64,000 nt of DNA, from sequence record PV577658; one strand, given 5' to 3'. This DNA comes from Escherichia phage vB_EcoS_MM-2. Under the pieces are notes generated by a model. The model worked only from the letters and a program-made list of their open reading frames with translations. It made no database searches and was not told the DNA's origin. The stretch's first letter is position 1, and the number at the start of each line of letters is the position of its first letter. The position numbers and the translations under genes were made by a program. Positions 3,032 to 48,716 of the stretch are shown piece by piece.

Positions 3032-3538
3032 TTGTCGTTGACAATTTGGATGGATTATGTAATAATATATGTATTGGAGGTGAGGATGTCATTCACACAG
3101 CAAGAACTTTTAGATAACTTCCGATATGAAGATGGTAAGTTATTTAGAACTACAGGAAGAAATGCAGGGAAAGAATGTTGTGTTTCTACAGGTAACGGAT
3201 ATTATCGTATATCTCTAGGGAATAGGACTATGCTTCGGCATAGAGCAATATTTTTAATGCATCATGGATACTTACCTGATTTAGTAGATCATGTGAATAC
3301 TATAAAAGGTGATGATCGTATTGAAAATCTTAGAGAGCAGACAGTATCCGGTAATCTAAGAAATATCAAATATAAGAAAGGAATGCATGTTTACCCTTCT
3401 GGTAGTAAGAACTGGCAAGTGGTATTTACTATTAACCGTAAACGTATAGTTAAAGGAACATATGACAACTATGAGGTTGCATGTTCTATGGCCAAGATGT
3501 TTAGAGGTCAATTATACGGTAGGGAATCAATCCAGTAA
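3032..3538 (+). CDS. HNH homing endonuclease (likely start at Met ~3086)
   Basis: HNH motif LVDHVNTIKGDDRIENLREQT; free-standing between unrelated genes. Confidence 0.7.
   Translation: MSLTIWMDYVIIYVLEVRMSFTQQELLDNFRYEDGKLFRTTGRNAGKECCVSTGNGYYRISLGNRTMLRHRAIFLMHHGYLPDLVDHVNTIKGDDRIENLREQTVSGNLRNIKYKKGMHVYPSGSKNWQVVFTINRKRIVKGTYDNYEVACSMAKMFRGQLYGRESIQ
3038..3066 (+). promoter_or_regulatory. sigma70-like promoter upstream of the HNH gene, inside a TTGACAGTCAA palindrome region
   Basis: Two TTGACA hexamers (~3014 and ~3038), AT-rich -10 (aataat) 17 bp downstream of the second, then GGAGGTGA RBS. Confidence 0.4.
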
Positions 3539-3546
3539 AATTTCAT

Positions 3547-3600
3547 TTGCAAGGGAGTATTATTTTATAGTATAATATTCCCATAAATGAGAGACATTAG
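3547..3600 (+). promoter_or_regulatory. early-type promoter (TTGCAA-18-TATAAT plus conserved downstream box)
   Basis: ttgcaa ... tataat followed by attcccataaatgagag, a variant of the ATTCATAAATTTGAGAG box seen after other promoters in the window. Confidence 0.55.
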
Positions 3601-4073
3601 TAAAAATTGATTTTGCTAATTTTTCTTGTTTACAATCCGCGATACGGAACAGTTAGGCTGCCCCATTAAGGGTTGTTTTAACTGTTACGTGTTAGTTTTT
3701 AAACAAATAGTTAATAGAATACTTAGCGATCTACATCCCGTAGGAACCCTGGTAAGGCCTCGAAGCAACCTAGTGTGAGGTGGTTGTGAAGTGAGACGGG
3801 AAGAGTGAAAAACTCTGAGAAGTGATGACGTAAGGTATACTGCATCTAGTATGAGCTAGTACATGAAGCATTAGGTGAGCAAATCTGGCTTAGCGGCCAT
3901 CCTCAAGGATTTGTGCGGTATAGTGAAGCGGCAGTGTAGCGTGAAAGGGGAAGTTGCCACCCCCCTTCAGTATTTGCGATTAATTTGTTGAGAAATTGAC
4001 AGTAACAGTTGTTCTATTCTTTCTGAATAGTCCTAAAGAAAACTTATTTCATTTCCAACACAGGAGTATTGTT
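3601..4073 (+). other. ~470 bp non-coding, relatively GC-rich region downstream of a promoter; candidate ncRNA or cis-acting replication element
   Basis: No ORF of 60 aa or more on either strand; local stem-loops (e.g. gaaagggg..cccccttc near 3943-3968); sits directly upstream of the large helicase gene. Confidence 0.3.
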
Positions 4074-6860
4074 GTGTTCTCAATCCTACAAGGTCATGCA
4101 GGATTTCATCGCGATTTAGCCACAGGCATTTGGCGAGAAGTTAAAGCAGAAGACTATCTTTTTGCTAAAAGATTTTCCTCAAAGCATCCTGAAGGTAAAC
4201 CAGCTTCAATGCCCTTCAAGTTTGATGTAATTGATGAAGTTGATCCTCAAACCCTAGTAGAAATGCTCCCTCTTATGAGACGTTTAACGTCTGACCCTCA
4301 TATCGTTGCGGTACGAGGTCGATGTCTTGCACCCAAAAATAATGTGCGGCGTAAGAAGGGCAACTTTAATGTATCTAACCCAAGTCATATAATTGCAATG
4401 GACGTGGATGGTATTGTAGATACAGGTGGTTGTAACAAGTTTGATCTTGTTGGCATGGCTCGACATATTATTAGAATGTTAAATAGTATTAGTGAGGATA
4501 TGTTTCCTCTTGATGCAGGGTTTATTGCTCATGCATCGTCTTCGGCTGGGCTAAAACCAGGTATCCGAATGCACTTAATACTAGAATCTAATGTTAAAGT
4601 AACTCAGGGTCAAATCAAATTCTTATTTACATCTATCAATGAAAGTAGTAGACAAAAGTATGGCTTTGATATTGCCGACTTAGCTTATTACTCTTCCGTA
4701 CAGCTCCATTATTTTGCAGATCCGTTATTTACCGATGGTATAGTAGATCCGTTTAAGGCGGAGGGTGCTTCACGTCTGGTATTTGTTAAGGGTTCTAAAG
4801 TAAACTTACCTAATAATCTGGTTGACTATGAAACAACTAGAGGTGAGTTTAAGGAGGAGTTTTACTCTTTACTCGATCAAATTAAAGGTAAAAAAGCTGC
4901 CTCCGATAAAGTAGAGGAAACTATCAGCGAACTAGAAGAAGCTGAGGATGGAGTGTATCTACGTATCATACCTAAACTCTATCACAGAGCTTTAGAGGAT
5001 GGTGTTGATTTTGCATGGCTAGAAAAAGAAATCCGTCCAGCCTTATCAGAATATATTGCAACCAAAGATAATAGTCGTAATATTCAAGATTACTTTAATA
5101 ACGGTCGTAAACAGGCTCTGAAAGCATTTGTTAATAATTCTAAACGCGATATACCTGATGTTTTAAAAGGTATTCCACTTAAAAAGCTAGAAACTAACTC
5201 TCTAGAAACTGATAACTTCTTGAAATTAAATACTGTACCACCAGAAGGTTATATGACTTTTGTAAAAGCAAGTCTAGGTACAGGTAAAACTACGGCGGTT
5301 GTGCGTTGGTTAGATTCAGGAGTTATTAAAGGTAATTTCTTAGCAATTACCAATACTCGAGCACTGGTATCTTCAAATGCTAAGAAATTTAGTGCAGGAC
5401 AATATGATAAGTCTGTAGATATGCTTAATTTTAAGCGTGGTGCTATTGACCGTATGTCCACAACTATTCACTCTTTGCATAAGTTCAAGAGTTTTATTGG
5501 TCAAATCGATGCAATCTTTATAGATGAATGTGATGCTGTAATGAATGACCTATTATTCGCCCCGGTTGTTAAACAACGTCGTGAATGTATTCAGGTTCTT
5601 CGGGATATTCTTGCAACTGCAAAAATCATTATATTATCTGATGGGGATATTAGTGCAGAAACAATTGAAGCATATGGTTCTTTAATTGAGTTTGATAAAC
5701 CGGTTGCATTTTATAATCATCACCGAAAAATGCTATCAAAAGCTCATGCCTACGAGTTCCCTGATGAATCCAGTATTTGGGTTGCACTTCAGACTTCTCT
5801 AGAGATGGGTGAGAAATCTATCCTAGTATCTGACTGTGGGCCGGATGAACTGAATGAGAAGGGCATGGCGTTGCGTCGTAATACGGGTGCGTTAGTTAAG
5901 GAAATCCACTCAAACTCTACGTCTGATGTAGATATTCGACGTATTCTGGATTACACAACTAATGAGTTAATTGACCAACAAATTGATTGCTTATTATGTA
6001 GTCCATCCGTAACGAGTGGTGTTGACTTCAACTATTTTGATAACGTATTCGTTATTACTAGAACCAGTAACCAAGCGCCAAACATGCGTTTTCAAGCAAT
6101 CAGGCGCGACCGTGGTGCTCAGAACATTTATTATTTTATTGATAAATCTACGAGTGGATTCTCCGCAGGCTCTGAACAATATAATATTGATGAAGGTTGG
6201 CTGGAGTTAGCACAGCAATTATACGCACGTCGTAGGGAGCTGGAGTCTAGGAACTATACTAGTACTTTACGTTATTACTTGCTTGATCAGGGTGCAACTA
6301 TTGATATTTTCAGTGAAAGCTGGGGAACTATCGAAGGTGCAGGTAAAGAGTATACAGAAGAGCGAATCAAAGCCATTTTGTATTCAACTCCTGATTATTG
6401 TGCTCCACGCCATGCAGATGCATATGAAGCTAAACTACTTCTTGTTCGCTATTATCATCTTGAGTCTATTAAAGATGTAACAGTTGAGCATGTTGAGCAA
6501 TACATTAAGGATAAACCGAATGATCGAGCGGCATTCTTCCATAAAATGCACGAGATGTTCTGGGAAGATATTAAGAAGTGTTCAAATGTCACTATCAAAC
6601 CATTCATAGAAGCTCTGAAAGGCAAGAAGAAAGATTTCTTCCTTAAAACAGGTCAGAGTGCTAACCCAAAATATGCCAGAATGTATCTTGGTATGATGGG
6701 TATTGGCAAGGATATGAACACGGAGAATATTGTAGACTGGTACAGAACTTATTGTAAAATCGAGTGTATGCCAATTCCTTTCAAATTCATGACAGAGGAA
6801 GAGAAGGCTATGGCAGAAGAAGTACTGTCCGAACTTGGAGCAACTAATGAAGACGCATAA
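3996..6860 (+). CDS. large P-loop NTPase / helicase, putative replication initiation or origin-binding protein (probable start GTG ~4074)
   Basis: Walker A LGTGKTT and Walker B FIDECD; AGGAG RBS 7 nt before an in-frame GTG at ~4074; about 930-954 aa. Confidence 0.6.
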   Translation: MTVTVVLFFLNSPKENLFHFQHRSIVVFSILQGHAGFHRDLATGIWREVKAEDYLFAKRFSSKHPEGKPASMPFKFDVIDEVDPQTLVEMLPLMRRLTSDPHIVAVRGRCLAPKNNVRRKKGNFNVSNPSHIIAMDVDGIVDTGGCNKFDLVGMARHIIRMLNSISEDMFPLDAGFIAHASSSAGLKPGIRMHLILESNVKVTQGQIKFLFTSINESSRQKYGFDIADLAYYSSVQLHYFADPLFTDGIVDPFKAEGASRLVFVKGSKVNLPNNLVDYETTRGEFKEEFYSLLDQIKGKKAASDKVEETISELEEAEDGVYLRIIPKLYHRALEDGVDFAWLEKEIRPALSEYIATKDNSRNIQDYFNNGRKQALKAFVNNSKRDIPDVLKGIPLKKLETNSLETDNFLKLNTVPPEGYMTFVKASLGTGKTTAVVRWLDSGVIKGNFLAITNTRALVSSNAKKFSAGQYDKSVDMLNFKRGAIDRMSTTIHSLHKFKSFIGQIDAIFIDECDAVMNDLLFAPVVKQRRECIQVLRDILATAKIIILSDGDISAETIEAYGSLIEFDKPVAFYNHHRKMLSKAHAYEFPDESSIWVALQTSLEMGEKSILVSDCGPDELNEKGMALRRNTGALVKEIHSNSTSDVDIRRILDYTTNELIDQQIDCLLCSPSVTSGVDFNYFDNVFVITRTSNQAPNMRFQAIRRDRGAQNIYYFIDKSTSGFSAGSEQYNIDEGWLELAQQLYARRRELESRNYTSTLRYYLLDQGATIDIFSESWGTIEGAGKEYTEERIKAILYSTPDYCAPRHADAYEAKLLLVRYYHLESIKDVTVEHVEQYIKDKPNDRAAFFHKMHEMFWEDIKKCSNVTIKPFIEALKGKKKDFFLKTGQSANPKYARMYLGMMGIGKDMNTENIVDWYRTYCKIECMPIPFKFMTEEEKAMAEEVLSELGATNEDA

Positions 6861-7365
6861 ACCAATGCCTCCTATGGCATTTATCCTAGAAAAGCTTAGG
6901 TATGACGAAAGTACTGGGGACTTAATTTGGTTATCTGGCCCAAGGAAGGGAAAGGTAGCGGGCTCCAAAATGAAAACTGGGAGACAGCTAGAGTTTATGA
7001 TAAATGGGGGGCGGACAGCTTACTTAGCCCATAGAATAATCTGGTTTATAAAGACAGGTGAAGATCCTGGAGATAAAACTATTGACCATAAAGACGGTGA
7101 TAGTTTAAACAACTTGTGGGATAATTTACGTAAGGCTACCTATTCCGAAAATGGAAAGAATAAGAAGTGTTCTACTAATTCTACCGGATTCACTGGAGTT
7201 GTAAAACGAGGTAATAGGTATATGGCCTACGCTTACTGCGATGGAAAGCAACATATTTTTGGTAGACGAGATACCCCGGAAGAAGCCCATCAGCTATACC
7301 TTAGGGGAGTTAAAGAGCTGTTTGGTGAATTTAATCCCTCGGAGAGATATGACAGTGAAGAATAA
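6835..7365 (+). CDS. HNH homing endonuclease with AP2-like DNA-binding domain
   Basis: IDHKDGDSLNNLWDNLRKATYSEN (HNH); GFTGVVKRGNRYMAY (AP2-like); start overlaps the 3' end of the upstream gene. Confidence 0.7.
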   Translation: MEQLMKTHKPMPPMAFILEKLRYDESTGDLIWLSGPRKGKVAGSKMKTGRQLEFMINGGRTAYLAHRIIWFIKTGEDPGDKTIDHKDGDSLNNLWDNLRKATYSENGKNKKCSTNSTGFTGVVKRGNRYMAYAYCDGKQHIFGRRDTPEEAHQLYLRGVKELFGEFNPSERYDSEE

Positions 7366-7582: not shown

Positions 7583-7590
7583 AAATTTAT

Positions 7591-7650
7591 TTGCATAGTG
7601 CAAAAAATTTCTGTATAATAGATTCATAAATTTGAGAGAGGAGTTTAAAT
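7591..7650 (+). promoter_or_regulatory. strong early promoter of the T5 PN25 type
   Basis: aaaatttatttgcat(-35)..17 bp..tataat(-10) then agattcataaatttgagagaggagttt; matches my recollection of the PN25 promoter used in expression vectors. Confidence 0.65.
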
Positions 7651-10164: not shown

Positions 10165-11136
10165 ATGACCAATGTAAAAGACTTTATTAAACGCTGTCAA
10201 GAAGCATATTATCAAGGTATGTCTTTAATCTCTGACGAAGAATATGATCGTCTGATTAAAAGATTTCCGTTAGAAGAAGAGATCGGGCCTAAGGGCGATA
10301 TTCCACATCTGTATCGTATGTATTCTTTACAGAAAGTTTATTATAATCGTGGAGATAAACCCCCGTTTAACCCATTAGGTCAGGTAGAAACTGATAAGTT
10401 AGATGGTTGTGCAATTTCTCTGTTATATATTAATGGCGAATTTGTTCAAGCACTAACTCGTGGTAACGGTATTCTAGGGAATGATGTCACAAGCAACGTA
10501 AGATTGCTGAACATCCCTAAAAAGATTTCCCAAAAAGTACCTACTCAAATCACTGGTGAAGTTCTAATTACAAAAGAAGTAGAAAATAAACGTAACTTTG
10601 CCTCTGGTGCTATTAACCTCAAAGATAGTGATGATTTTGTACAACGTATCGGAGAAGGTGGTTTAATCTTCGTTGCATATGGTATCCAGTGTTCTGCTGA
10701 ATCTGTAGGTATTACAGAAGCATATTTAAAAGATATGCTTTGGCTGGAGAATGAGAACTTCTTAACAGTTGTTAATGTGCGTTCTTTCTTTAAATGGATT
10801 CCGACGGACGGTAAAGTTGTTCGTATTAATGATAACAACAAATTCTTCCGTGAAGGCTGGACTAATAAATTCCCTCGTGGAGCATTCGCTATTAAAGAGG
10901 ATGAAGAAGGCGAGATTACAACTCTTACTAAAGTTGAATGGCAGGTAGGAGCTTCTGGTAAAGTAACTCCAGTTGGTTATTTCGAACCGGTAATTATTGA
11001 TGATGCTACAATTGTTAAAGCGACTCTTAATAACGTTGATTATATTAACTCTCTTGATCTAGAGATCGGTTGCCAGATTCGAGTGATTCGTGCTGGTGGT
11101 GTAATCCCGTGCATAGTAGAGCGAGTATATGATTAA
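10165..11136 (+). CDS. ligA: NAD-dependent DNA ligase, N-terminal subunit (adenylation domain)
   Basis: KxDG adenylation motif (TDKLDGCAIS), LTRGNG, and LigA-like layout. Confidence 0.75.
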   Translation: MTNVKDFIKRCQEAYYQGMSLISDEEYDRLIKRFPLEEEIGPKGDIPHLYRMYSLQKVYYNRGDKPPFNPLGQVETDKLDGCAISLLYINGEFVQALTRGNGILGNDVTSNVRLLNIPKKISQKVPTQITGEVLITKEVENKRNFASGAINLKDSDDFVQRIGEGGLIFVAYGIQCSAESVGITEAYLKDMLWLENENFLTVVNVRSFFKWIPTDGKVVRINDNNKFFREGWTNKFPRGAFAIKEDEEGEITTLTKVEWQVGASGKVTPVGYFEPVIIDDATIVKATLNNVDYINSLDLEIGCQIRVIRAGGVIPCIVERVYD

Positions 11137-11335: not shown

Positions 11336-12118
11336 TTGATGAAAATCGAAATTCCAACACAATGTCCCTCTTGTGGTTCTAAGCTAGATCTTGTCAACGG
11401 ACAATTATTTTGTCGGAATAAGTCCAACTGTCCAGCGCAATCAAGTAAGTTAATTGAGAACTTCTGTACAAAAATGAAGTTAAAGGGCTTTGGTCCAAAA
11501 ACTATTGAAAAGCTGGAGCTGACGAAGATCTCAGAACTATTTTACCTAACCGAAGAAGATTTGGTTAGAGCCGTGGGTAGCAAGGTTGCCGCTAAGTTAA
11601 TTAGCGAATTAAATACTAAAGTTCGCGGAGACATTGACTTTGGTTCAGTTCTCGGTTCTTTAGGAATCCCTCTAATTGGAGAGGTTGCAGCAAAGAAATT
11701 ATCCCAAAATTGCACTAGCTTCCACGATGTGAAGGCTGACGGCAAGGCTGGAGAAAACTACAAAGCCTGGCTAAATTCCCCGCAAGGCAAGGATGTTATC
11801 GAACTACCGTGGAAATTCTCAACTGGTATTAAGGGCACTAAAGCTGACGTCATCATTACAGATGAATTAGTTGCCCAGCCAAATGGAATCGCGGTATGTA
11901 TTACCGGATCTTTGCAAGATTTTGCAAATCGAACGGATGCAACAAACTATTTAGAAAGTCTAGGGTATACGGTTAAGAAATCCGTTACCAAAGACGTAAA
12001 ATACCTGATCTGTGAGGATGAATCAAAACGTTCTTCCTCATCTTATAAGAAAGCCGAAACGAATGGGATAGAAATCCTGTCGATTAAAGAACTATTGGAG
12101 AAAAATAATAATGTCTAA
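11336..12118 (+). CDS. ligB: NAD-dependent DNA ligase, C-terminal subunit (Zn finger, HhH, BRCT-like)
   Basis: CPSCGSKLDLVNGQLFCRNKSNCPAQ Cys4 zinc finger typical of LigA; likely ATG at ~11339. Confidence 0.7.
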   Translation: MMKIEIPTQCPSCGSKLDLVNGQLFCRNKSNCPAQSSKLIENFCTKMKLKGFGPKTIEKLELTKISELFYLTEEDLVRAVGSKVAAKLISELNTKVRGDIDFGSVLGSLGIPLIGEVAAKKLSQNCTSFHDVKADGKAGENYKAWLNSPQGKDVIELPWKFSTGIKGTKADVIITDELVAQPNGIAVCITGSLQDFANRTDATNYLESLGYTVKKSVTKDVKYLICEDESKRSSSSYKKAETNGIEILSIKELLEKNNNV

Positions 12119-12878
12119 ACTGAACTGGAACGTAGAAGGTGTAACCGAGTCTCTGAAAGCAAAAGCCACTGCTCTGGGTGTTTCTGTAATCTCTCAAGAA
12201 CAAGTAGCTGCTATCGCTGCTGAACTGGCTGCTGAAACTGGCAAAGATGTTACTGCTCGCTCTGTTGGCTCTAAACTGCGTAAAGAAGGTTTTGAAGTAC
12301 AGAAAGCTAACGAAGTACAGAAATCCCCGTGGACTCCTGAGCAGGAAGCTGAACTGGTTGATTTCCTGAACGCTCATGCTGGTCAGTATACCTATGCTGA
12401 AATCGCTGCTGCTGTAGCTGGTGGTCAGTTCGGTGCTAAACAGGTACAGGGTAAGATCCTGAGTCTGGAAATGACCGCTTCTGTTAAACCAACTGAAAAA
12501 GCTGCTGCTGTTCGTTCCTTTACTCCGGATGAAGAAACTGATTTTGTTAATCAGGTTGTTGCTGGTGCTACTATTGAAGCTATCGCTGCTCACTTCGGTC
12601 GTAATATCAAGCAGATCCGTGGTAAAGCTCTGAGCCTGCTTCGTGAAGGTCGTATCGCTGCTATGCCGGTACAGGAAACTTCCAGTGCTAAAACTCGTGA
12701 AGATCTGTTAGAAGGTCTGGATCTGGTTAACATGACTGTTGCTGAGATCGCTGAGAAAACTGGTAAGTCTGAGCGCGGTGTTAAATCTATGCTGTCTCGT
12801 CGTGGTCTGGTTGCTAAGGACTATGATGGTGCCGCTAAGCGTGCTAAACTGGATGCAAAAGCTGCGGCTGCTGAATAA
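12111..12878 (+). CDS. abundant DNA-binding protein with four tandem HTH-like repeats (possibly D5-like)
   Basis: Four ~30-aa repeats of the form (V/Y/I)..(I/Q)(A/V)A..(A/G)....G.......G(S/K).L...G; strong codon bias suggesting high expression. Confidence 0.45.
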   Translation: MSKLNWNVEGVTESLKAKATALGVSVISQEQVAAIAAELAAETGKDVTARSVGSKLRKEGFEVQKANEVQKSPWTPEQEAELVDFLNAHAGQYTYAEIAAAVAGGQFGAKQVQGKILSLEMTASVKPTEKAAAVRSFTPDEETDFVNQVVAGATIEAIAAHFGRNIKQIRGKALSLLREGRIAAMPVQETSSAKTREDLLEGLDLVNMTVAEIAEKTGKSERGVKSMLSRRGLVAKDYDGAAKRAKLDAKAAAAE

Positions 12879-12885
12879 TCTGGTA

Positions 12886-12930
12886 AATTAAACCTAAGGG
12901 GAGGGGGCTATGCTCCTTCCCCTTTTTGCA
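12886..12930 (+). terminator. possible attenuating terminator hairpin
   Basis: G/C-rich imperfect hairpin aaggggaggggg..tccttcccc followed by tttttgc. Confidence 0.35.
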
Positions 12931-14433
12931 TTTAGAAGGCACGAAAGCGTGCAAAGGAGAATGACCTTGTTTAACGTGCAAGCTGTAGTGTTGAAGATGC
13001 TTCTAGCTTCTGAACAGAAGCAAATAGCATTGGAAACATTCTCAAAACTGCATAAAGATCATTTTAATGACGCTTTCTCCTCAATTTACCAAGCCGTCCA
13101 GAATTATTATAAAAAATATAACACAATGCCGTCCATTGACGCACTGATGCTTGAGGCTAATAGGAACGCCCGCCTTTCTCAAGCTCTAGTCGTTTTAGCT
13201 AACACTCAAATTCCAGAAGTGAGCATGGAACAGGCACTTGAAGTCCTAGAGGCCGAATATACACAGGATTTATTCCTAAAGCTTCTAGAAACAGACGTGC
13301 TTCAAGATTTAACAATGCTGGATCAGGGAGAAATTCTCAACCGAGTTGCCTCCCTTCACTTAAAATTAGAAGAGAAAGTAACGAATACTGGAAAAGTATT
13401 CAACGCAGATAACATGCGTATTTTCCAGAGAGAAGAAGATACCAAACTGAACCTAATCGCTCTTGGTATTTGTAATGAGTTCGACGCTCAAATTGGTTTA
13501 GCTCGCACAGAAACGTTACTGCTTGGTGGTTGGCGTGGTACTGGTAAATCCATTATCTGTTCAAACATACAGGTTCAGCAATATTTGAATGGAGATATTG
13601 CTCCATACTTCTCAATTGAGATGAAAGAACATGAAGTATTTAGACGTAATCTAGCCATGCTAGCTGGTGTATCAGCACTAGCAATGCGTAATAATACTCT
13701 AGAAGGTGCAGCTCTGTTGAGACTAGCCAGAACTAGAGCTAGGATGTTCAACGGTGGTGAAGAGCTTTTCGATAACTTCGTTAAACAGTATACAATGGCT
13801 AAGATGAGTGATTTCTACGATATGGAGAGTAAGCTAATAGAAGGGTATGAGCTACATACTCCTATGATTATTGTTTATGACCCTGAGTTGTCTATTACAA
13901 CAGTTGACGTAGAATTAAATAAATTAGTTGCTAGATATGGTGATAAAGTTACAGTAGCTCTACTTGACTATATTAACCAAACCCGACTTCCAGACTCTAA
14001 AACCATTGATATGTATGACTGGAAAGAACAGATGGTTGTTAGCTCGTCTTTCAAATCTATCTGCCAGAAACATAACGTGGCTGGCGTAGCTCCTTACCAG
14101 ATCGATCAAGACGGTAGAACACGTATGTCAAAGGGGATTCTTGATTCCGCAGACATGGCTGCTAATCTTAATGCTGCAAAAGCTGATAATGGTCAAGGTG
14201 CTATTATGTTTGACTTCGTTAAGACTCGTTCTTCTGATAGCGTGAAGTTTATGCCTAAAATGAACTGGGAAACTCTGCGAATGGATAACACTACCAACCT
14301 AGCAATGGAAGATATATCTCAAATGGAAGCTGAGTTCGTTATCCCTATTGAGAAGGATAAGCCGGCTCAACCTAAACGTGCTAAGAAAGACAAAGCTGAA
14401 AATTCAACAGGTGAACAGGCCAGCGATATATGA
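12910..14433 (+). CDS. DnaB-like replicative helicase (likely start at Met ~12961)
   Basis: Walker A-like GGWRGTGKS; RecA-like C-terminal region; AAGGAG RBS before the internal Met. Confidence 0.65.
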   Translation: MLLPLFAFRRHESVQRRMTLFNVQAVVLKMLLASEQKQIALETFSKLHKDHFNDAFSSIYQAVQNYYKKYNTMPSIDALMLEANRNARLSQALVVLANTQIPEVSMEQALEVLEAEYTQDLFLKLLETDVLQDLTMLDQGEILNRVASLHLKLEEKVTNTGKVFNADNMRIFQREEDTKLNLIALGICNEFDAQIGLARTETLLLGGWRGTGKSIICSNIQVQQYLNGDIAPYFSIEMKEHEVFRRNLAMLAGVSALAMRNNTLEGAALLRLARTRARMFNGGEELFDNFVKQYTMAKMSDFYDMESKLIEGYELHTPMIIVYDPELSITTVDVELNKLVARYGDKVTVALLDYINQTRLPDSKTIDMYDWKEQMVVSSSFKSICQKHNVAGVAPYQIDQDGRTRMSKGILDSADMAANLNAAKADNGQGAIMFDFVKTRSSDSVKFMPKMNWETLRMDNTTNLAMEDISQMEAEFVIPIEKDKPAQPKRAKKDKAENSTGEQASDI

Positions 14434-14963
14434 TAACACAGGAAAGGCTAAAAGAGTTATTTGATTACTCCCCAGGAACTGGGGAGTTTACTAGAAAAGT
14501 ATCTAGAGGTAATCAGAAAGCTGGTAGTATAGCTGGTTCTTTAAGAAAAGATGATTATATATGTATATGGGTAGATGGAAAGCCTTACTATGCGCATCAA
14601 CTAGCTTTTCTCTATATGGAAGGTTATTTACCTGAAGAAGTAGACCATATAAACCGTATACGAAGTGATAATCGTTGGGTTAACCTTAAAGATTCTTCTC
14701 ACCAAGAGAATAGCAGGAATAAAGCAGCTAAAAGTAAATCAGGGTATATAGGAGTTAGTTGGAATAAACAAAGGCAAAAATGGCAAGTTCAACTAAGAGA
14801 TACCAATAAAAAGAAAATATTCGGTGGATATTTTGAGTACCAGAATTTAGAATCAGCAGTAGATAAGATTAATAATCTACGATTACAATTTCATGGGGAA
14901 AATGCTATTCAAGAAATATTCGACCCGTCTAATTATCCTGCATTAGAGGAGATAAATTCATGA
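14430..14963 (+). CDS. HNH homing endonuclease with AP2-like domain
   Basis: EVDHINRIRSDNRWVNLKDSSHQEN (HNH); GYIGVSWNKQRQKWQ (AP2-like); ATGA overlaps with both helicase stop and primase start. Confidence 0.7.
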   Translation: MITQERLKELFDYSPGTGEFTRKVSRGNQKAGSIAGSLRKDDYICIWVDGKPYYAHQLAFLYMEGYLPEEVDHINRIRSDNRWVNLKDSSHQENSRNKAAKSKSGYIGVSWNKQRQKWQVQLRDTNKKKIFGGYFEYQNLESAVDKINNLRLQFHGENAIQEIFDPSNYPALEEINS

Positions 14964-15850
14964 GTAGAATAACAGAATTACTTGATCTTAAGGGAATTGA
15001 GTATAAAGATACTGGTGGAGATATTTTAATCTGTTGCTTAAATCCATATCATGATGATAAACACCCAAGTTTGCGTATTGATCCTGAAACCGGGATTATG
15101 CACTGCTTGAGTTGCGGTTTTGGCAAAGGTATACCTAGTATTTATCATTATTTTAATGAGACTCAATATAGACAATCTCCAAGACTATCCCAAGTACGTA
15201 AAAAGATTTCAGAGATTAGAAATGGATCTACGAATCTTGCAATCCCAGAATCTGCCTGCCTTTTCGAAGGTGATTTCCGAGGTATAAGTTCTAAGACCTT
15301 GAAGAAATATTTTGCTTTCCAACACCAAGAGAACTGGGAAGGCAGAATTGTATTCCCAATCACAGATGCTGTTGGACGCAATATCCTATTTTTGGGTCGT
15401 TCTATAAACAGTTCTGCCCCTCCTAAATACTTAGTAAAACCAAAACAGGTTTCACCACCAATTTTCCCTGTACGATATAATACTCCAGTTCTTATTCTAG
15501 TTGAAGGTATCTTTGATATGCTGAACCTAGAGGATAGTGGTATAGACTATGCTTCTTGCTGCTTTGGTACACATCAGTTTACTTCAGACAACATTGCAGA
15601 TAAGTTCAGTCCGTACATTATTGCTGGTGTTAAAGTTGTTGTTATCTTACTAGATAATGATGCTTCTGGTAATAAAGCTGCACAAGCACTGGCCAAGCTA
15701 ATTCGTACAAAAACGCGTTTAACACCTGTAGTTGCTAACTTTCTTCTGCCTGAAGGTAAAGACCCAGGTGACTTAAATAAAGAAGAAATTGATATGTTAG
15801 CAAAACGTATTGAAATTTTAGTTGCTGAATCGCTTAAAGATTTGGTATAA
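14960..15850 (+). CDS. DnaG-like DNA primase (zinc-binding domain plus TOPRIM)
   Basis: CCLNPYHDDKHPSLRID...HCLSCGFGKG zinc-binding motif; TOPRIM LVEGIFDMLNL and LLDNDASG. Confidence 0.7.
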   Translation: MSRITELLDLKGIEYKDTGGDILICCLNPYHDDKHPSLRIDPETGIMHCLSCGFGKGIPSIYHYFNETQYRQSPRLSQVRKKISEIRNGSTNLAIPESACLFEGDFRGISSKTLKKYFAFQHQENWEGRIVFPITDAVGRNILFLGRSINSSAPPKYLVKPKQVSPPIFPVRYNTPVLILVEGIFDMLNLEDSGIDYASCCFGTHQFTSDNIADKFSPYIIAGVKVVVILLDNDASGNKAAQALAKLIRTKTRLTPVVANFLLPEGKDPGDLNKEEIDMLAKRIEILVAESLKDLV

Positions 15851-15876
15851 TAGTCCTAAATAACTGAGGAGTTACT

Positions 15877-16206
15877 ATGGAATATGTATATATTTATGCG
15901 GATGTTCCAGTGTATGATAGTATAACACACAAAGAGGTTAAACTAGAGCGGTTTACAACACTGGAGTCCCTTAACAAACGAAAGAATTTCCATTTATTTG
16001 GTGATCCTAAATTACCTGCATCTTATATTTACTTTAAAGTAAAAGATACAGGTCAAGAGGTATACCTAACATATGATTGGGCTGTTGTAGAAAATACTGA
16101 GCAATCTATGAAAGCGCTAGATGCTTTTCTGCGCATAGATGAAGAATTTCGGGTACTAGAAAAGCAGCGCAATGAAATGCGTAAATTACTTCACACATAT
16201 AAATAG
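15877..16206 (+). CDS. hypothetical protein
   Basis: Track ORF with RBS GAGGAG. Confidence 0.4.
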   Translation: MEYVYIYADVPVYDSITHKEVKLERFTTLESLNKRKNFHLFGDPKLPASYIYFKVKDTGQEVYLTYDWAVVENTEQSMKALDAFLRIDEEFRVLEKQRNEMRKLLHTYK

Positions 16207-16208
16207 TA

Positions 16209-16240
16209 TTTGCTATTATCCCAATATTTTGATATAATAT
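16209..16240 (+). promoter_or_regulatory. early promoter (TTGCTA-18-TATAAT) upstream of the DNA polymerase gene
   Basis: ttgctattatcccaatattttgatataat. Confidence 0.5.
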
Positions 16241-16299
16241 ATTGGTAAGTTAGAGAAGAAACACTGAAGTTATACTTACTTACCAAGAGGAGATTAAAT

Positions 16300-18867
16300 T
16301 TGAAAATCGCAGTAGTTGATAAAGCTCTAAATAACACTCGTTACGATAAACATTTCCAGCTATATGGCGAGGAAGTTGATGTATTTCATATGTGTAACGA
16401 GAAGTTATCTGGTCGTTTGCTTAAAAAGCACATTACTATTGGAACACCAGAAAACCCATTTGATCCGAATGATTACGATTTTGTTATACTAGTAGGTGCT
16501 GAACCTTTCCTGTATTTCGCAGGTAAGAAAGGCATTGGTGACTATACTGGTAAACGTGTAGAGTATAATGGATATGCTAACTGGATTGCGAGTATCAGCC
16601 CAGCCCAGTTACACTTTAAACCTGAAATGAAACCAGTTTTCGATGCAACAGTAGAAAATATCCACGATATTATCAATGGTCGTGAGAAGGTTGCAAAAGC
16701 TGGTGATTACCGTCCTATTACTGACCCTGACGAGGCGGAAGAATATATCAAGATGGTGTATAATATGGTTATCGGACCTGTCGCATTCGACTCCGAAACC
16801 TCAGCACTATACTGTCGAGATGGTTATCTGCTTGGTGTTTCTATGTCTCACCAAGAGTATCAGGGTGTATATATCGATTCTGATTGTCTCACCGAGGTTG
16901 CAGTATATTATCTCCAGAAAATTCTGGATAGTGAAAACCACACTATTGTTTTTCACAACCTGAAGTTTGATATGCACTTTTATAAGTACCATCTGGGACT
17001 TACTTTTGATAAAGCGCATAAAGAACGCAGGCTCCATGATACTATGTTGCAGCATTATGTTCTAGATGAACGTCGTGGTACTCATGGCTTGAAATCTCTA
17101 GCAATGAAGTATACCGATATGGGTGACTATGACTTCGAACTAGATAAGTTCAAAGAGGATTACTGCAAAGCACATAAAATCAAGAAAGAAGATTTCACCT
17201 ATGATTTAATTCCGTTTGATATTATGTGGCCTTACGCTGCGAAAGATACCGATGCTACCATACGTTTGCACAACTTCTTCTTACCAAAAATTGAGAAGAA
17301 TGAAAAACTTTGTAGTCTGTATTATGATGTCCTAATGCCTGGTTGTGTATTTCTCCAGCGTGTTGAGGATCGTGGTGTACCTATTTCTATTGATCGTTTA
17401 AAAGAAGCTCAGTACCAGTTAACCCATAATCTGAATAAAGCTCGTGAAAAACTGTATACTTATCCAGAAGTCGTTCAGCTAGAGAAAGATCAGAACGAAG
17501 CGTTTAACCCAAACTCTGTTAAACAACTCCGTGTTCTTCTGTTTGATTATGTTGGCTTAACTCCAACAGGTAAATTGACGGATACTGGAGCAGATTCTAC
17601 AGATGCAGAAGCTCTGAACGAATTGTCTACGCAGCATCCAATTGCTAAGACTCTACTAGAGATTCGTAAGCTAACTAAGCTGATCTCTACTTATGTTGAG
17701 AAGATTCTTCTGAGTATTGATGCAGATGGTTGCATTCGTACTGGTTTCCACGAACATATGACTACTTCTGGTCGTCTGAGTTCTTCCGGTAAACTGAACT
17801 TGCAACAGTTACCTCGTGATGAATCTATTATCAAGGGTTGTGTAGTAGCTCCTCCTGGGTATCGTGTAATCGCATGGGACTTAACAACTGCGGAAGTTTA
17901 TTATGCTGCTGTTCTATCTGGTGATAGAAATATGCAACAAGTATTTATCAACATGAGAAATGAACCAGATAAATACCCCGACTTCCACTCTAACATCGCA
18001 CACATGGTATTTAAGCTCCAATGCGAGCCTCGTGATGTTAAAAAGTTATTCCCAGCTCTGCGTCAAGCAGCTAAAGCAATCACCTTTGGTATTCTGTATG
18101 GTTCTGGCCCAGCTAAAGTAGCTCATTCTGTTAACGAAGCTCTTCTGGAACAGGCTGCTAAGACAGGCGAACCGTTTGTAGAGTGTACGGTTGCAGATGC
18201 TAAAGAGTATATAGAAACTTACTTCGGTCAGTTCCCGCAGCTTAAGCGTTGGATTGATAAGTGCCATGATCAGATCAAGAATCATGGATTTATCTATAGT
18301 CACTTTGGTCGTAAACGTCGTCTGCATAATATCCACTCCGAAGACCGTGGTGTTCAAGGTGAAGAAATCCGTTCTGGATTTAACGCAATCATTCAGTCTG
18401 CTTCTTCTGATAGTCTCCTTTTAGGTGCTGTAGATGCAGATAATGAGATCATTTCTCTTGGCCTAGAACAAGAGATGAAGATTGTTATGCTGGTTCACGA
18501 CTCCGTAGTTGCTATTGTTCGTGAGGATTTGATCGACCAATACAATGAAATCCTAATTCGTAATATTCAGAAAGACCGCGGTATTAGTATTCCTGGCTGT
18601 CCGATTGGTATTGATTCAGATTCTGAAGCTGGAGGTTCTCGCGACTACTCTTGTGGTAAGATGAAGAAACAGCACCCATCAATCGCTTGTATTGATGATG
18701 ATGAATATACTCGTTATGTCAAGGGTGTATTACTTGATGCAGAATTCGAGTATAAGAAACTAGCTGCAATGGATAAAGAGCATCCAGATCATAGCAAATA
18801 CAAGGATGATAAGTTTATTGCTGTATGTAAAGATTTGGATAACGTGAGAAGGATTCTCGGTGCTTGA
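16300..18867 (+). CDS. family-A DNA polymerase with 3'-5' exonuclease domain
   Basis: 855 aa; exo motif FDSETS, motif A WDLTTAEVYY, motif B RQAAKAITFGILYG, motif C LVHDSV; TTG start after AGGAG. Confidence 0.9.
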   Translation: MKIAVVDKALNNTRYDKHFQLYGEEVDVFHMCNEKLSGRLLKKHITIGTPENPFDPNDYDFVILVGAEPFLYFAGKKGIGDYTGKRVEYNGYANWIASISPAQLHFKPEMKPVFDATVENIHDIINGREKVAKAGDYRPITDPDEAEEYIKMVYNMVIGPVAFDSETSALYCRDGYLLGVSMSHQEYQGVYIDSDCLTEVAVYYLQKILDSENHTIVFHNLKFDMHFYKYHLGLTFDKAHKERRLHDTMLQHYVLDERRGTHGLKSLAMKYTDMGDYDFELDKFKEDYCKAHKIKKEDFTYDLIPFDIMWPYAAKDTDATIRLHNFFLPKIEKNEKLCSLYYDVLMPGCVFLQRVEDRGVPISIDRLKEAQYQLTHNLNKAREKLYTYPEVVQLEKDQNEAFNPNSVKQLRVLLFDYVGLTPTGKLTDTGADSTDAEALNELSTQHPIAKTLLEIRKLTKLISTYVEKILLSIDADGCIRTGFHEHMTTSGRLSSSGKLNLQQLPRDESIIKGCVVAPPGYRVIAWDLTTAEVYYAAVLSGDRNMQQVFINMRNEPDKYPDFHSNIAHMVFKLQCEPRDVKKLFPALRQAAKAITFGILYGSGPAKVAHSVNEALLEQAAKTGEPFVECTVADAKEYIETYFGQFPQLKRWIDKCHDQIKNHGFIYSHFGRKRRLHNIHSEDRGVQGEEIRSGFNAIIQSASSDSLLLGAVDADNEIISLGLEQEMKIVMLVHDSVVAIVREDLIDQYNEILIRNIQKDRGISIPGCPIGIDSDSEAGGSRDYSCGKMKKQHPSIACIDDDEYTRYVKGVLLDAEFEYKKLAAMDKEHPDHSKYKDDKFIAVCKDLDNVRRILGA

Positions 18868-22991: not shown

Positions 22992-24810
22992 GACACTAAA
23001 ATTTAGTAACGTTATGTCTTACGGTAAGGACATCGTAATTCATTTCGACAAGAATCCAGTTACTCAACTAATTGGTGGCAATGGGCTAGGGAAATCCACC
23101 ATCGCTACGGTTATCGAGGAATTGTTTTATAACAAGAACTCACGGGGTATTAAGAAGGATGCTCTGTTCTCTTGGTCTTCTCCGAAAAAAGAGTATGATA
23201 TGCACGCTTACTTCTCAAAAGATGAAGATGAGTATGAATTGCATAAAGTAGTTAAATCAACTGCTAAAGTAACCCTTATTAAGAATGGAGAAGATATTAG
23301 TGGACACACGGCGACCCAAACATACAAGATGATTGAAGAAATTATGGGTGGTGACTTCCAAACATTCACCAAACTTATTTATCAATCAGTGGGTTCTAAT
23401 CTAGACTTTCTAAAAGCAACAGATGCAACACGTAAGGCTTTTCTTGTCAACTTGTTCAATCAAGAACAGTACAAAGAAATGTCAGAAACTATTAAGGCTG
23501 ACCGTAAAGAAATAGCAAATACCTTAAATAATTTGCAGGGCCAAATGGCTGTAATTACGAAAATTCTTAATGGAAAGAATAACTTGGGAACTTTGCAGGA
23601 ACCTGTAGAAGTACCGGAGTTTGATGAAGAGCCGTTAGCACAAGAACTTACTGAATCGAAAATTAAGGCGGCATTAGCCAAGTCTCAAGAGGCTAATATT
23701 ACTAAATTGCGTAATTTGGACAAAGCTGTACAAGTTGCCGAACAATCTTTCGAGCCTTTCAAAAATTTACCCGCGCCCACTGACCAAAATGAAGAGATCT
23801 CGAGTGTTACGCGTGACCTAACGATTGTGACCTCACGTGCGAGCGAAGTTAAGAAACGTTATCAGAAGTTCAAGCAAGAGGCTTCAAATACTGAATGTCC
23901 TACCTGTGGTACTCATCTGGATACAACTGCTGCGCAAAAAGCAATGGATATGGCTAGAACAGAATATGATCCTCTGTTCAAAGAGAAGCAATCTCTTGAA
24001 GCTAAGCTAGAACAGTTGAAGAAGGAACAACTTGAGTACGTTGCGTATACTAGAGCAAAGGATGCTTTGGATAAGGCAGTGGTAGCTAGAGACGAGTTCA
24101 AAAATTCAATGAGTGATGCTTCTTTTGAAGAACTCAATGTGCAAATCCTACAGGTGCAAATCCGACAATTAGAACAGGAAATAGCTGATGGACGTTCTAA
24201 GGTTGCAATTGCTAAAGAACATAATGCAAATATTGAGTTAGCCAATGCAAAATATAAGGCGAAACTAGAACAGATTGAGAAAGCTGAGGCAGAAATGTCT
24301 GAGATTACATCCAAACTGGATGGAGTATCAGAAGCTGTTGCTGATCTCGATATTCTGATTGCTGCATTAAAGAATCTAGTAGGATATAAGCTAGAGCATA
24401 GTGTGAAAGTATTTGAAGAACTTATCAATAAATACCTTTCTATTATGACTGGCGGTAAGTTCGCACTTGGATTTGAACTTGATGAAACGAAATTGCAAGT
24501 AGTAATCTTCAATGATGGAAACCGTACCAGTATGGAGAATTGCTCTACTGGTCAGCAAAGTCGAATCAACCTAGCAACTCTGTTAGCTATTCGAATGCTA
24601 CTAACATCTATTAGTAAAGTTAATATTAATCTTCTATTCCTTGATGAAGTAATTAGCTTTATTGATACTAAAGGACTTGACACCCTTGTTGAATTATTAA
24701 ATGAGGAAGAAAGTCTAAATTCTATCATTGTTTCTCATGGGCATACGCATCCATTAGCCCATAAGATTACTGTCAAAAAAGATGCAGAAGGATTTTCCTA
24801 CTTAGAATAA
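22897..24810 (+). CDS. SbcC/Rad50-family ATPase (likely start at Met ~22972)
   Basis: Walker A GGNGLGKST, long coiled coil with CPTCG zinc-hook, signature STGQQSRINLA, Walker B LLFLDEV. Confidence 0.75.
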   Translation: MNFTSVKLRSYLKVTLIESWLELRNMSKITIKTLKFSNVMSYGKDIVIHFDKNPVTQLIGGNGLGKSTIATVIEELFYNKNSRGIKKDALFSWSSPKKEYDMHAYFSKDEDEYELHKVVKSTAKVTLIKNGEDISGHTATQTYKMIEEIMGGDFQTFTKLIYQSVGSNLDFLKATDATRKAFLVNLFNQEQYKEMSETIKADRKEIANTLNNLQGQMAVITKILNGKNNLGTLQEPVEVPEFDEEPLAQELTESKIKAALAKSQEANITKLRNLDKAVQVAEQSFEPFKNLPAPTDQNEEISSVTRDLTIVTSRASEVKKRYQKFKQEASNTECPTCGTHLDTTAAQKAMDMARTEYDPLFKEKQSLEAKLEQLKKEQLEYVAYTRAKDALDKAVVARDEFKNSMSDASFEELNVQILQVQIRQLEQEIADGRSKVAIAKEHNANIELANAKYKAKLEQIEKAEAEMSEITSKLDGVSEAVADLDILIAALKNLVGYKLEHSVKVFEELINKYLSIMTGGKFALGFELDETKLQVVIFNDGNRTSMENCSTGQQSRINLATLLAIRMLLTSISKVNINLLFLDEVISFIDTKGLDTLVELLNEEESLNSIIVSHGHTHPLAHKITVKKDAEGFSYLE

Positions 24811-44446: not shown

Positions 44447-44465
44447 ATCGGCTGAAAAGCCTGTA

Positions 44466-45842: not shown

Positions 45843-45859
45843 TTTTAAATAATTCTCCG

Positions 45860-46492
45860 TTATTCTTTAACGTAGCCTAAAGCTATCGCAAGTTTTTCTA
45901 GTTCAGAAAGATTACGTTCTTGAGCTGGGACAGCTTTAGAACTTATTGCAGTAAAAGATTTACGCCATTCAGTATAATCATGACCATTCATACTCTTAGC
46001 GAGATTGAATGTTGAGTCCTGATTACAAGGTACAGAAACTACCGAAACTTCGTATAGTTCTAAATCTTTAATAATAAATATATCAGTAGCTTCATCCCAC
46101 TCTGCATCTAGGCAGCGGAATCCGATACTAAAAGTTTTCAGTACACCGTTTTTAATTAGCGAAAAGATAGCCGGGTCAGAACTTTCATAGATCTCACATT
46201 CGATTTCGAGACCCATTTCAGTAGGATTAAGATCAATACACTTGCCGATTGGACGACGATGGTCGTGTCCGAAAAGAATAATCGGGTTTTTCATGTAGTT
46301 AGCAAGTGCATTAGATGTTTTCCATGCAGAGGCAGGAATTACATCACCAGCGCGATCTTTACTAATTGTATTAGCGAATCCACGGATTTTTACAACACCC
46401 TCTTTGGATTCGCTATCAATAGATTTAATATAAGCATCTAAATGAACCGGTGCTGATTTTAACTTGTTATAGTCAATAGCAGCTTGTGTCAT
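45860..46492 (-). CDS. prohead maturation protease (T5 pb11-like)
   Basis: 210 aa, immediately upstream of the capsid gene. Confidence 0.6.
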   Translation of the reverse strand: MTQAAIDYNKLKSAPVHLDAYIKSIDSESKEGVVKIRGFANTISKDRAGDVIPASAWKTSNALANYMKNPIILFGHDHRRPIGKCIDLNPTEMGLEIECEIYESSDPAIFSLIKNGVLKTFSIGFRCLDAEWDEATDIFIIKDLELYEVSVVSVPCNQDSTFNLAKSMNGHDYTEWRKSFTAISSKAVPAQERNLSELEKLAIALGYVKE

Positions 46493-46495
46493 TTA

Positions 46496-46978
46496 TTAGC
46501 CTCCAACACCGGGATTAACCGTTACTGTGCATGCAGTAGAAGGTTTACTAACTTTCTTGCTATCTGTAACCGTTACTTTATAGACTCCCGAATCATCAGT
46601 AGCTGCTGCAGGCTTAGTATAGGTAGCTCCTGAAGCATCTGGAATAGGAGAACCATCTTTAGTCCATGCATAAGTATATGGACCAGTACCGCCGGTTGCA
46701 GTAACTGAAAGGGTTAATGCTGCTCCCTCTTCAACGGACATGCTAGCAGTTAAATCTTTAGAAAGAGTTAATGGTGGAGCAGGAGGAACTGCTTTACCAT
46801 ATGCCTCTACAAATTTCTTCCATACTTTACGGTTAGTATGCGCAGATGAAAGTCCTAGTTCTCTACGCAGAAAAGCGTAACTAGGAACATATTTATGCGC
46901 AGCAACCGTAGCAAAGAAGATATGAGATTCTGGCAGTTTTTCACCAAAAATGGTCTTTAGACCATTATAATCAATCAT
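46496..46978 (-). CDS. capsid decoration protein with Ig-like domain (T5 pb10-like)
   Basis: C-terminal Ig-like segment (LTLSVTATGGTGPYTYAWTKDGSPIP...GVYKVTVTD). Confidence 0.55.
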   Translation of the reverse strand: MIDYNGLKTIFGEKLPESHIFFATVAAHKYVPSYAFLRRELGLSSAHTNRKVWKKFVEAYGKAVPPAPPLTLSKDLTASMSVEEGAALTLSVTATGGTGPYTYAWTKDGSPIPDASGATYTKPAAATDDSGVYKVTVTDSKKVSKPSTACTVTVNPGVGG

Positions 46979-48192
46979 TCTTTATCTCCCTCGGTGGAAC
47001 CTTGAGGTCTACCACCTTCTTGACCAGACACACCTGTTGCAGAACCAGCAACGTTAGCAGGAATACGAATCTTATCCATCTGCTCATCATCTAAAGGTTC
47101 AAGGTTCAGCTCTAAACGAGCTTCGTTACCAGTCATAATACCATTATTAACCAATGAGGTTAAATGTTTAGCCTCAGCTTCTTTATCTGGTGTTAATGCA
47201 GCTACTTCCTTAGTATTAGGAGTAATCTTATAACCAAAAAAGAAAGTAAGAGAACTAGTCAGTTTGTTCAGCATAGGAATGATAGTCATGTAATAGAACA
47301 GTTCGATATTTGGTCGAATGTTCGCGTTATTACCACCATCAAGTAACACTTGCGGAACACCAAAGGCTAGACAGATAGATTTATTAAATCCTTCAATGTC
47401 TTCCTTAAAGTCTAGATCTTTAAAAGAGGATATTTGGGAGTACGGTTTAGCTTTCATACCACCATCTAGAATCAGGACAGAGGACTGACCAGTACTAGGA
47501 TTATAATCTAGTTGTAATTCTTCTTGTTTACGCTCACGCAATTTCTTGTTCAGGATTTCATCCGTCTCAAGAATAAGTCCAATCACGGTTCCGTTATCGA
47601 GGAATTTCTCTTTAAAGTTAAGCATCTTAGAACGCTTCTCAAGAGAATCAATAACAGTAGCAACACGAGATTGTCCAGAAATTTGAGAATTTGTGCCACA
47701 CACGTAACTGTTATCCTTTATAAAGATAATCTCATCTACGCGATAGTCTATCTGGTTATTAAATATAAATTTTTTGATAAACTTATTGGCATCTGCCTCT
47801 ACTTGCATTAATGCAGCAGGGACATGGTAAAGTGCTGTGCCATCCCAATAGATGTATGCACAACCTTCAAAAAGTAGGTCAGTGACTACAAGTCTACGGA
47901 ATGTGCTTATATCCATGAATGGATTAGGTCGTACATTTAAGAGAGTGTCTAGAGTCTTTGCCTTGATGCCATTGGCATACGTGACAATATTATATTTATC
48001 TCCGACAGTATAAGAACACTCCGCCGCACTATCTATAACCATATTAGCAGTTCTATTGAGAATCTCAATTTTACTGTAGGCTTGTCCAGTGGTAAAAGGC
48101 TTACGGTTAGTGCGATGACTAACTGGTTCCATGTCTCTTATAATACGTTGACCCGGATTTAGCTTTTCAGTAATCCAGCTTTTAAAACCCAT
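46975..48192 (-). CDS. portal protein
   Basis: 405 aa between terminase/HNH and decoration/protease genes. Confidence 0.65.
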   Translation of the reverse strand: MGFKSWITEKLNPGQRIIRDMEPVSHRTNRKPFTTGQAYSKIEILNRTANMVIDSAAECSYTVGDKYNIVTYANGIKAKTLDTLLNVRPNPFMDISTFRRLVVTDLLFEGCAYIYWDGTALYHVPAALMQVEADANKFIKKFIFNNQIDYRVDEIIFIKDNSYVCGTNSQISGQSRVATVIDSLEKRSKMLNFKEKFLDNGTVIGLILETDEILNKKLRERKQEELQLDYNPSTGQSSVLILDGGMKAKPYSQISSFKDLDFKEDIEGFNKSICLAFGVPQVLLDGGNNANIRPNIELFYYMTIIPMLNKLTSSLTFFFGYKITPNTKEVAALTPDKEAEAKHLTSLVNNGIMTGNEARLELNLEPLDDEQMDKIRIPANVAGSATGVSGQEGGRPQGSTEGDKE

Positions 48193-48716
48193 TATAAGAA
48201 CCTTGCGAATCCTGATTTTGTTTCAGTCTTGACTTGTGTCTTTTCTTGAGGATTCTGTAATTTGTCTTTCTGCTTTTGAACCCACACTTTTTGCTTATTA
48301 GCAGAAAATAAAGGAGGTTCTTTTGTGTAAACCTTATGTAATAATTGGTGATGGTGTACACAAAGGGTAACAGTGTCTTCTACTAGCTCATGCCTATATC
48401 GATCATAGAATGCCGTCCTATTTGAAAGGACTATTTCTTCGTCAGTGAAATCCAATTGGAGTTCTTTAGCAAATTTTTTAACTAGTAGAGACACCGTATG
48501 GTAATGATGAAGCTCTAATTCTTCAGCACAACCGCAGATAGCACATTGAGAGTCTTTTTTATATTGACTTTTTATTCCGTCTCTCATAAGGGATATAGCA
48601 TCGCGTTTATATTTTATATTGCTTGCCATAGTGTTCTCCTCAACTGTATGAATATAGTATACATAATCGTATCGAATTTGTAAAGGGGATTTTAAAATGC
48701 AGGAATGGGATACCAA
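48192..48716 (-). CDS. HNH endonuclease (likely start at internal Met ~48629)
   Basis: CAICGC...HHYH...CVHHHQLLH zinc-binding HNH motif; inserted between terminase and portal genes. Confidence 0.65.
   Translation of the reverse strand: MVSHSCILKSPLQIRYDYVYYIHTVEENTMASNIKYKRDAISLMRDGIKSQYKKDSQCAICGCAEELELHHYHTVSLLVKKFAKELQLDFTDEEIVLSNRTAFYDRYRHELVEDTVTLCVHHHQLLHKVYTKEPPLFSANKQKVWVQKQKDKLQNPQEKTQVKTETKSGFARFL

Follow-up and report, generated by a model that had tools for sequence, protein, structure and literature searches.

Are the small nuclease genes scattered through the genomes of T5-like phages all mobile, or does one of them belong to the phage's own equipment? The question is raised by a stretch of 64,000 nucleotides (nt) of Escherichia phage vB_EcoS_MM-2 (PV577658), hereafter the window, in which an initial annotation made from the letters alone had listed four free-standing HNH endonuclease genes and had taken all of them for likely mobile homing endonucleases. 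We hold with considerable confidence that the first three (genes 1–3, here HNH1, HNH2 and HNH3) are mobile, free-standing homing endonuclease genes (HEGs) of the HNH_3 family, and that gene 4, beside the terminase, encodes the nicking endonuclease SciA.

The window covers the right half of the genome of a T5-like phage. Its bases 12000–17000 are 100% identical to Escherichia phage vB_EcoS_MM-1 (PV577657.1; Demerecviridae, Tequintavirus), the window as a whole corresponds to positions 53932–117931 of that record, and we call its alleles MM-1 type. More than 500 T5-like phage records match the region at 80–98% identity, so that comparative tests are well powered. The flanks of the genes occur in ∼480–523 phage records in DNA searches, which served as the denominator for slot occupancy, and 28 close relatives were fetched from IMG/VR via the primase gene, the same genomes being recovered via the origin-binding protein. 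T5-like genomes differ from one another chiefly in their homing endonucleases (PMC10644984; see also PMC8594841); T5 carries nine HEGs, and phage Stitch is free of them (PMC4319617).

All four open reading frames (ORFs) are present in the window with the ends that had been listed. The longest-ORF calls place the starts of genes 1, 2 and 4 at upstream TTG codons, which we rejected because they have no Shine-Dalgarno sequence and because GenBank and T5 annotations use ATGs. The likely true starts are ATG 3086 (gene 1), ATG 6847 (gene 2) and ATG 48629 (gene 4), identical to the coding sequence limits in PV577657.1; GGAGGTGAGG precedes the gene 1 start and GAGGAG that of gene 4. The limits of gene 3 (14430..14963) are exact. 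Pfam HNH_3 (PF13392) matches genes 1–3 with E-values of 2.9e-11, 1.4e-12 and 1.7e-13, covering 43–46 of its 46 positions at 43–50 bits against a cutoff of 24.8, and DH...N...N motifs are seen in the three translations. These three genes all fall in PHROG 99 and are distant paralogs with pairwise amino acid identities of 26–31%, whereas gene 4 has no significant similarity to them by BLASTP or phmmer. Thus, of the description as four HNH endonuclease genes, the ORFs themselves and the HNH_3 assignment of genes 1–3 stand, while three of the starts were wrong and gene 4 belongs to an unrelated family. The G+C content of all four ORFs is low (34–41%). No further nuclease paralog was found by phmmer across the six-frame ORFs of the window, and ten more window ORFs, small or unannotated, were scanned against Pfam and gave DUF7566 and DUF7415 alone. 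None of the four genes has an NCBIfam match, and HNH3 matched nothing in a search of PDB sequences.

The distribution of genes 1–3 among relatives is sporadic. HNH1 occurs in 54 of the ∼480 phage records with the flanking region and in 4 of the 28 relatives; HNH2 in 23 records and 3 relatives. For HNH3, 14 records have the MM-1 allele at ≥95% identity, and the hegJ allele of T5 fills the same slot in about 45–59, so that the slot between helicase and primase is occupied, counting both alleles, in ∼60–73 of ∼480–520 records; among the 28 relatives it is filled in 9 (the MM-1 allele in one, the hegJ allele in eight) and empty in 19. For each gene there is a single fixed slot, unoccupied in the majority of close relatives, and the gene behaves as a clean cassette: genes 1–3 are separate ORFs outside introns and inteins, and the neighboring genes are complete in occupied and empty genomes alike. 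The expectation that HNH genes of this phage would be mobile and vary in presence is therefore borne out for HNH1–3 (4, 3 and 9 of the 28 relatives occupied). The synteny comparison gave the opposite result for gene 4, which is present in every one of the 28.

Free-standing HEGs of the T4 MobE and Seg type lie between conserved genes of essential operons, have their target in the adjacent gene, convert flanking sequence together with themselves and are sporadically distributed, a behavior termed intronless homing. HNH1–3 resemble these genes in the placement of a nuclease gene between conserved genes, in a predicted adjacent target, in probable co-conversion and in sporadic presence; they belong to a different phage family, and HNH2 and HNH3, unlike the T4 genes, use start-codon capture and translational coupling instead of promoters of their own. 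In the mechanism that we propose from sequence comparison, the HNH enzyme would, during a mixed infection, nick or cut a HEG-less relative within the conserved gene adjoining its own slot; with the HEG-carrying genome as donor, recombinational repair would then copy in the HEG together with adjacent sequence, and the carrier would be protected by its own target copy, recoded or disrupted. Genomes with and without the HEGs do differ in the adjacent conserved gene as expected for target-site immunity or co-conversion. A candidate target that is intact in HEG-less genomes and altered or disrupted in carriers was found at primase nt 48–72 and at the 3′ end of the origin-binding-protein gene (obp), in both cases as an association uncorrected for phylogeny. 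It is from such patterns that we infer the cleavage specificity and the actual homing of HNH1–3.

The clearest case is HNH3 (14430..14963, + strand; 177 amino acids), which occupies the slot of T5 hegJ (P-TflX, T5.120). The helicase TGA (14431–14433) lies inside an ATGA at 14430–14433 and the primase ATG (14960) inside a second ATGA at 14960–14963, confirming both overlaps described in the initial annotation; its view that the gene is translationally embedded in the replication operon is also correct, and T5 hegJ is embedded likewise. Where the slot is empty, as in BB1, FGS009 and other genomes, one ATGA joins the helicase stop directly to the primase start, which makes HNH3 an exact 530 base pair (bp) insertion between duplicated ATGA sequences. 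The 3′ end of HNH3 (…GAGGAGATAAATTCATGA) provides a GAGGAG Shine-Dalgarno sequence upstream of the primase ATG. The first codon of HNH2, and likewise that of HNH3, coincides exactly with the start codon of the displaced downstream gene, and their 3′ ends each rebuild a Shine-Dalgarno sequence and an ATG for that gene. This arrangement suggests that the two genes are expressed by the translational coupling of the replication operon and do not interrupt it.

Upstream of the helicase/primase junction, 90 nt are essentially identical in all genomes compared; the differences that go with occupancy lie within primase. At primase nt 49–72, GACACAGGTGGGGACATCCTCATC is found in 21 of 21 empty genomes and in none of the 11 occupied ones. 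All 11 occupied genomes carry changes in nt 48–72 that are silent, leaving the peptide DTGGDILI unchanged; the window reads AGATACTGGTGGAGATATTTTAATC at the corresponding positions (15007..15031, + strand). At least five distinct primase haplotypes are present among the occupied genomes, with nt 66 and nt 69 altered in all of them. Occupancy and primase haplotype are associated with a Fisher p of 7.8e-9 (32 genomes; uncorrected for shared ancestry). The ancestral 18-mer GGTGGGGACATCCTCATC persists as far out as the Klebsiella T5-like phages, whose primase is 72% identical. In one carrier (L012), primase is empty-like beside the HEG (nt 19–42) and altered at nt 51–72, a pattern that favors selection for an uncuttable target over simple proximal co-conversion. 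Primase nt ∼48–72, some 50–70 bp inside the gene and encoding DTGGDILI just before the CHC2 zinc finger, is thus predicted from these comparisons to be the site that the HEG of this slot acts on, and is probably the target or immunity site of HNH3.

The cluster of silent sites could instead be a hitch-hiking co-conversion tract or a recombination mosaic, with the true target of HNH3 at the helicase/primase ATGA junction, which the insertion disrupts. The insertion does split that junction, the MM-1-type differences reach primase nt ∼300 and the alleles are mosaic, as would be expected in that case. The variety of haplotypes among occupied genomes, all altered at the same two positions, and the carrier that is empty-like next to the HEG argue against a junction target, which we regard as a serious alternative with perhaps a minor share of the probability.

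HNH3 and T5 hegJ share slot, length and ATGA junctions, and overall they are 65% identical in amino acids and ∼72% in nucleotides. This identity is unevenly spread. The first ∼100 nt (34 amino acids) are 100% identical (window 14430–14530 versus L004 15615–15715), whereas identity past nt 100 drops to ∼65% in nucleotides, with 62 non-synonymous and 32 synonymous codon differences. HNH3 is, by this sequence comparison, a mosaic allele with a recombination breakpoint inside a homing endonuclease gene. MM-1-specific substitutions run on through primase nt ∼60–300, indicating that the block exchanged relative to T5 comprises the distal three-quarters of the HEG plus the 5′ end of primase. We consider, as a rather doubtful extension, that the slot is contested by at least two HEG alleles with different DNA-binding and catalytic regions (the MM-1 and hegJ types match exactly over the first 34 amino acids and are ∼55–60% identical thereafter), in a form of serial “super-homing” with primase nt ∼48–72 as the battleground. 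If so, each allele may carry its own recoded primase 5′ segment, and one might cut and replace genomes with the other allele as well as empty ones.

HNH2 (6847..7365, + strand; 172 amino acids) is the ortholog of T5 hegI (P-TflIX, T5.109), to which it is 97.2% identical in nucleotides and with which it shares slot, length and overlaps with the neighboring genes. It starts 14 nt upstream of the obp stop, at the ATG that the next gene (the T5.110 homolog) uses in empty genomes. The insertion replaces the obp C-terminus, which now reads …ATNEDA before the stop; the last codons of HNH2 (DSEE and stop) correspond to the 3′ end of ancestral obp, and at 7349 the next gene regains its start, for a net insertion of 502 bp. 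We rejected the ATGA shared at this slot as a target-site duplication, since an ATG plus one base is weak evidence. The recoded 3′ end of obp (6773..6846, + strand) travels with HNH2: the last ∼75 nt of the gene are densely substituted, in part non-synonymously, in 4 of 4 carriers relative to all 25 HEG-less genomes. One genome (L113) lacks hegI and has the carrier-type obp codons upstream, a recombinant that looks like the footprint of an imprecise gain or loss.

HNH1 (3086..3538, + strand; 150 amino acids), which has no counterpart in T5, is by contrast part of an intergenic cassette and would be expressed from its own promoter. Alignment of five loci with the HEG and 11 without it, together with a promoter scan, delimits a cassette of ∼630 bp (2962..3588, + strand) that replaces ∼135 bp present in HEG-less relatives. 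It consists, in order, of a variant terminator hairpin, a promoter-like site of its own, the gene and a substitute promoter-like site for what follows. The first of these sites (3038–3066; TTGACA-17-AATAAT with an upstream TG) is strong in the scan, and the second (3547–3576) is a replacement for the downstream genes. Locus L112 keeps the cassette and also has a duplicate of the “empty-type” promoter segment, again resembling a trace of imprecise gain or loss. Another HNH gene, 35% identical to HNH1 in amino acids, lies between the T5.110 homolog and D2 in L088, L114 and L115 (∼5606–5905); this slot is empty in the window (7583–7650).

Genes 1–3 might be retained because they benefit the phage, for instance by excluding the markers of co-infecting relatives or through a role in replication or recombination, and so be domesticated and not purely selfish. 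The ORFs are intact and 95–100% conserved among carriers, HNH2 and HNH3 are fitted into the replication operon with downstream expression signals undisturbed, and HNH3 has a weak AP2-like DNA-binding match in Pfam. Each gene, however, is dispensed with by 83–95% of relatives, Stitch does without any HEG (PMC4319617), and selfish spread already explains the pattern. We judge domestication unlikely as the explanation, noting that a competitive benefit and selfishness are compatible.

Gene 4 is of a different kind. It lies, as first described, between the large terminase (48744–50060) and portal (46975–48192) genes, and overlaps the portal start in a TAATG. No Pfam model in our local copy matches it even at E≤10. 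Among PHROGs it is assigned to PHROG 3497 (“unknown function,” E = 1e-69), with a weak match to an HNH PHROG (5.7e-6); its motif CxxC...HH...CxxHH...H makes the label HNH defensible. A phmmer search of PDB sequences returned 9QGV and 9QGX (“Nicking endonuclease”) at E = 1e-80, entries titled as SciA of Escherichia phage T5 in complex with 10 bp DNA (GCGC ...), and a profile of the SciA family matched these two PDB entries alone. The 9QGV chain is the translation of T5.153 except for H42Q. Homologs of gene 4 (114 sequences) are all assigned to Pfam PF26848, some under the UniRef name “Nicking endonuclease,” and C29, C32, H41, H42, C90, H94 and H98 are invariant across 57 sequences, H42 being catalytic. 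Gene 4 and T5 SciA (T5.153) are both 145 amino acids long and 84% identical; they share the invariant Cys and His residues (H42 among them), the gene order terminase-sciA-portal and the major nick sites.

Gene 4 (48192..48629, − strand) is therefore orthologous to T5 sciA and encodes a small, divergent Cys/His nuclease (HNH-like) that is conserved family-wide; it is a core late gene of the Demerecviridae for a site-specific (GCGC) nicking endonuclease, translationally coupled to the portal gene. The search for sciA gave 593 phage records, those of Klebsiella, Proteus and Vibrio T5-like phages among them, with the gene invariably located between terminase and portal; all 28 relatives defined by primase have it, always 2 nt before the portal gene. 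The suggestion that this gene is a mobile homing endonuclease is accordingly rejected, since conservation at an identical position in every relative is what was found here and orthology to SciA accounts for the gene.

Given its position between large terminase and portal, its coupling to the portal gene and its universal conservation, gene 4 might be a packaging cofactor of the HK97 gp74 type, needed by terminase to cut concatemers, and not a self-standing nickase; HNH proteins encoded next to terminase are a known packaging component (PMC3592412, PMC5304195). SciA and gp74-type proteins are both small nucleases encoded beside terminase and portal genes, SciA being putatively Zn-binding and of the His-Me kind as they are, and the sequence of gene 4 has no detectable relationship to the gp74 type, matching neither the Pfam HNH models that cover such proteins nor any PDB profile beyond SciA. 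The two systems also differ in their DNA ends (long terminal repeats in T5-type phages versus cos ends). The PDB entries name the protein a nicking endonuclease bound to GCGC DNA, and the role reported for SciA is nicking, with the nicks dispensable (PMC3517423). Genetic mapping in T5 placed sciA and sciB in the late region, and nick-less mutants were viable (PMC3517423); that article, citing Rogers 1979, reports viable interruption-deficient mutants. We observed one otherwise identical sciA with a 38-bp frameshifting deletion (L145, 2560–2600), either a natural nick-less variant or an assembly error, which likewise speaks against an essential packaging function. A gp74-type cofactor in place of a nickase is in our view quite improbable; SciA may nonetheless have a dual role in nicking and packaging. 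That all four genes are mobile homing endonucleases, as the small size and low G+C content of the four Cys/His or HNH-type nuclease ORFs and the weak HNH PHROG match of gene 4 might suggest, deserves almost no credence in view of the fixed position of gene 4 across genera, its SciA orthology and its lack of similarity to genes 1–3.

SciA would introduce the strand-specific nicks at GCGC-containing sites that are typical of T5-type virion DNA, and two major sites of this kind lie in the window. The first (23770..23777, − strand; GG/GCGCGGG), in the SbcC-like D13 gene, agrees in position and sequence with the T5 misc_feature “major DNA single-chain interruption” at 78573/4. The second (63632..63639, − strand; AA/GCGCAGGG) falls within the right terminal repeat, ∼470 nt short of the right end, and agrees likewise with the T5 misc_feature at 121279/80. 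Both are conserved T5 major nick sites and, on the strength of this correspondence, presumed substrates of SciA. The published consensus for major nicks is R/GCGCRGG (PMC3517423); RGCGCRGG matches the window six times, once on the plus strand and five times on the minus strand; beyond the two T5 sites, the matches are at 505, 34739 and 49643 (−) and at 25939 (+). We rejected avoidance of GCGC as a footprint of SciA: the tetranucleotide occurs 91 times, at an observed-to-expected ratio of 0.94 against a Markov expectation, and is merely unevenly distributed. Its density is ∼7-fold higher in the right terminal repeat (53702–64000; 5.15/kb) than in the unique region (1–53701; 0.71/kb) at nearly equal G+C (40.2% and 38.6%). 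CGCG is also enriched in the repeat, and the GCGC density may reflect pre-early CpG usage and not nicking.

Several considerations weigh against our interpretation of the four genes. The 32 genomes compared are related, and shared ancestry inflates the haplotype association, part of which could also come from hitch-hiking donor flanks. HNH3 and T5 hegJ, at 65% amino acid identity, may not have the same target, and the target sites proposed for P-TflIX, P-TflX and the MM-1 alleles are predictions from comparative sequence. For SciA, the 91 GCGC occurrences mean that the choice of site needs more than GCGC.

The terminase locus does contain a variable element, which is the T5.154-type gene and not sciA. 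In T5 an 834-bp insert (T5.154) with GIY-YIG-like T5orf172/MUG113 domains separates the terminase gene from sciA, and several relatives have this insert or a 517-bp ORF-less remnant of it at the same place (loci L003, 8774–9607, and L135–L144). In the window, which lacks T5.154, the 114-nt spacer (48630..48743, − strand) represents the empty site of this mobile gene by comparison with T5 and its relatives. SciA is 97–100% identical among insert-free genomes, MM-1 included, and 81–86% identical to that of genomes with the insert or remnant, so that the window has the SciA of the insert-free haplotype. Elsewhere in the window, the NAD-dependent DNA ligase consists of two ORFs for the A and B subunits (10165–11136 and 11339–12118) with a spacer of ∼200 nt, an arrangement also found in T5, whose spacer holds promoters.

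All four genes had been recognized or annotated before, the T5 heg genes from 2004–2005 on and SciA through structures from 2026; the additions made here are the mosaic allele in the hegJ slot, the architecture of start-codon capture and the inferred target or immunity site within primase. The main relevance is to annotation and comparative genomics. HNH1–3 and their co-converted flanks are routine selfish elements that should be masked in phylogenies of T5-like phages, and gene 4 should be annotated as the SciA nickase instead of “hypothetical” or “homing endonuclease.” The comparative data yield a testable prediction for the target of hegJ-type enzymes, namely primase nt ∼48–72 with key positions 66 and 69, and HNH2 and HNH3 illustrate how genes can insert into translationally coupled operons without breaking the coupling.

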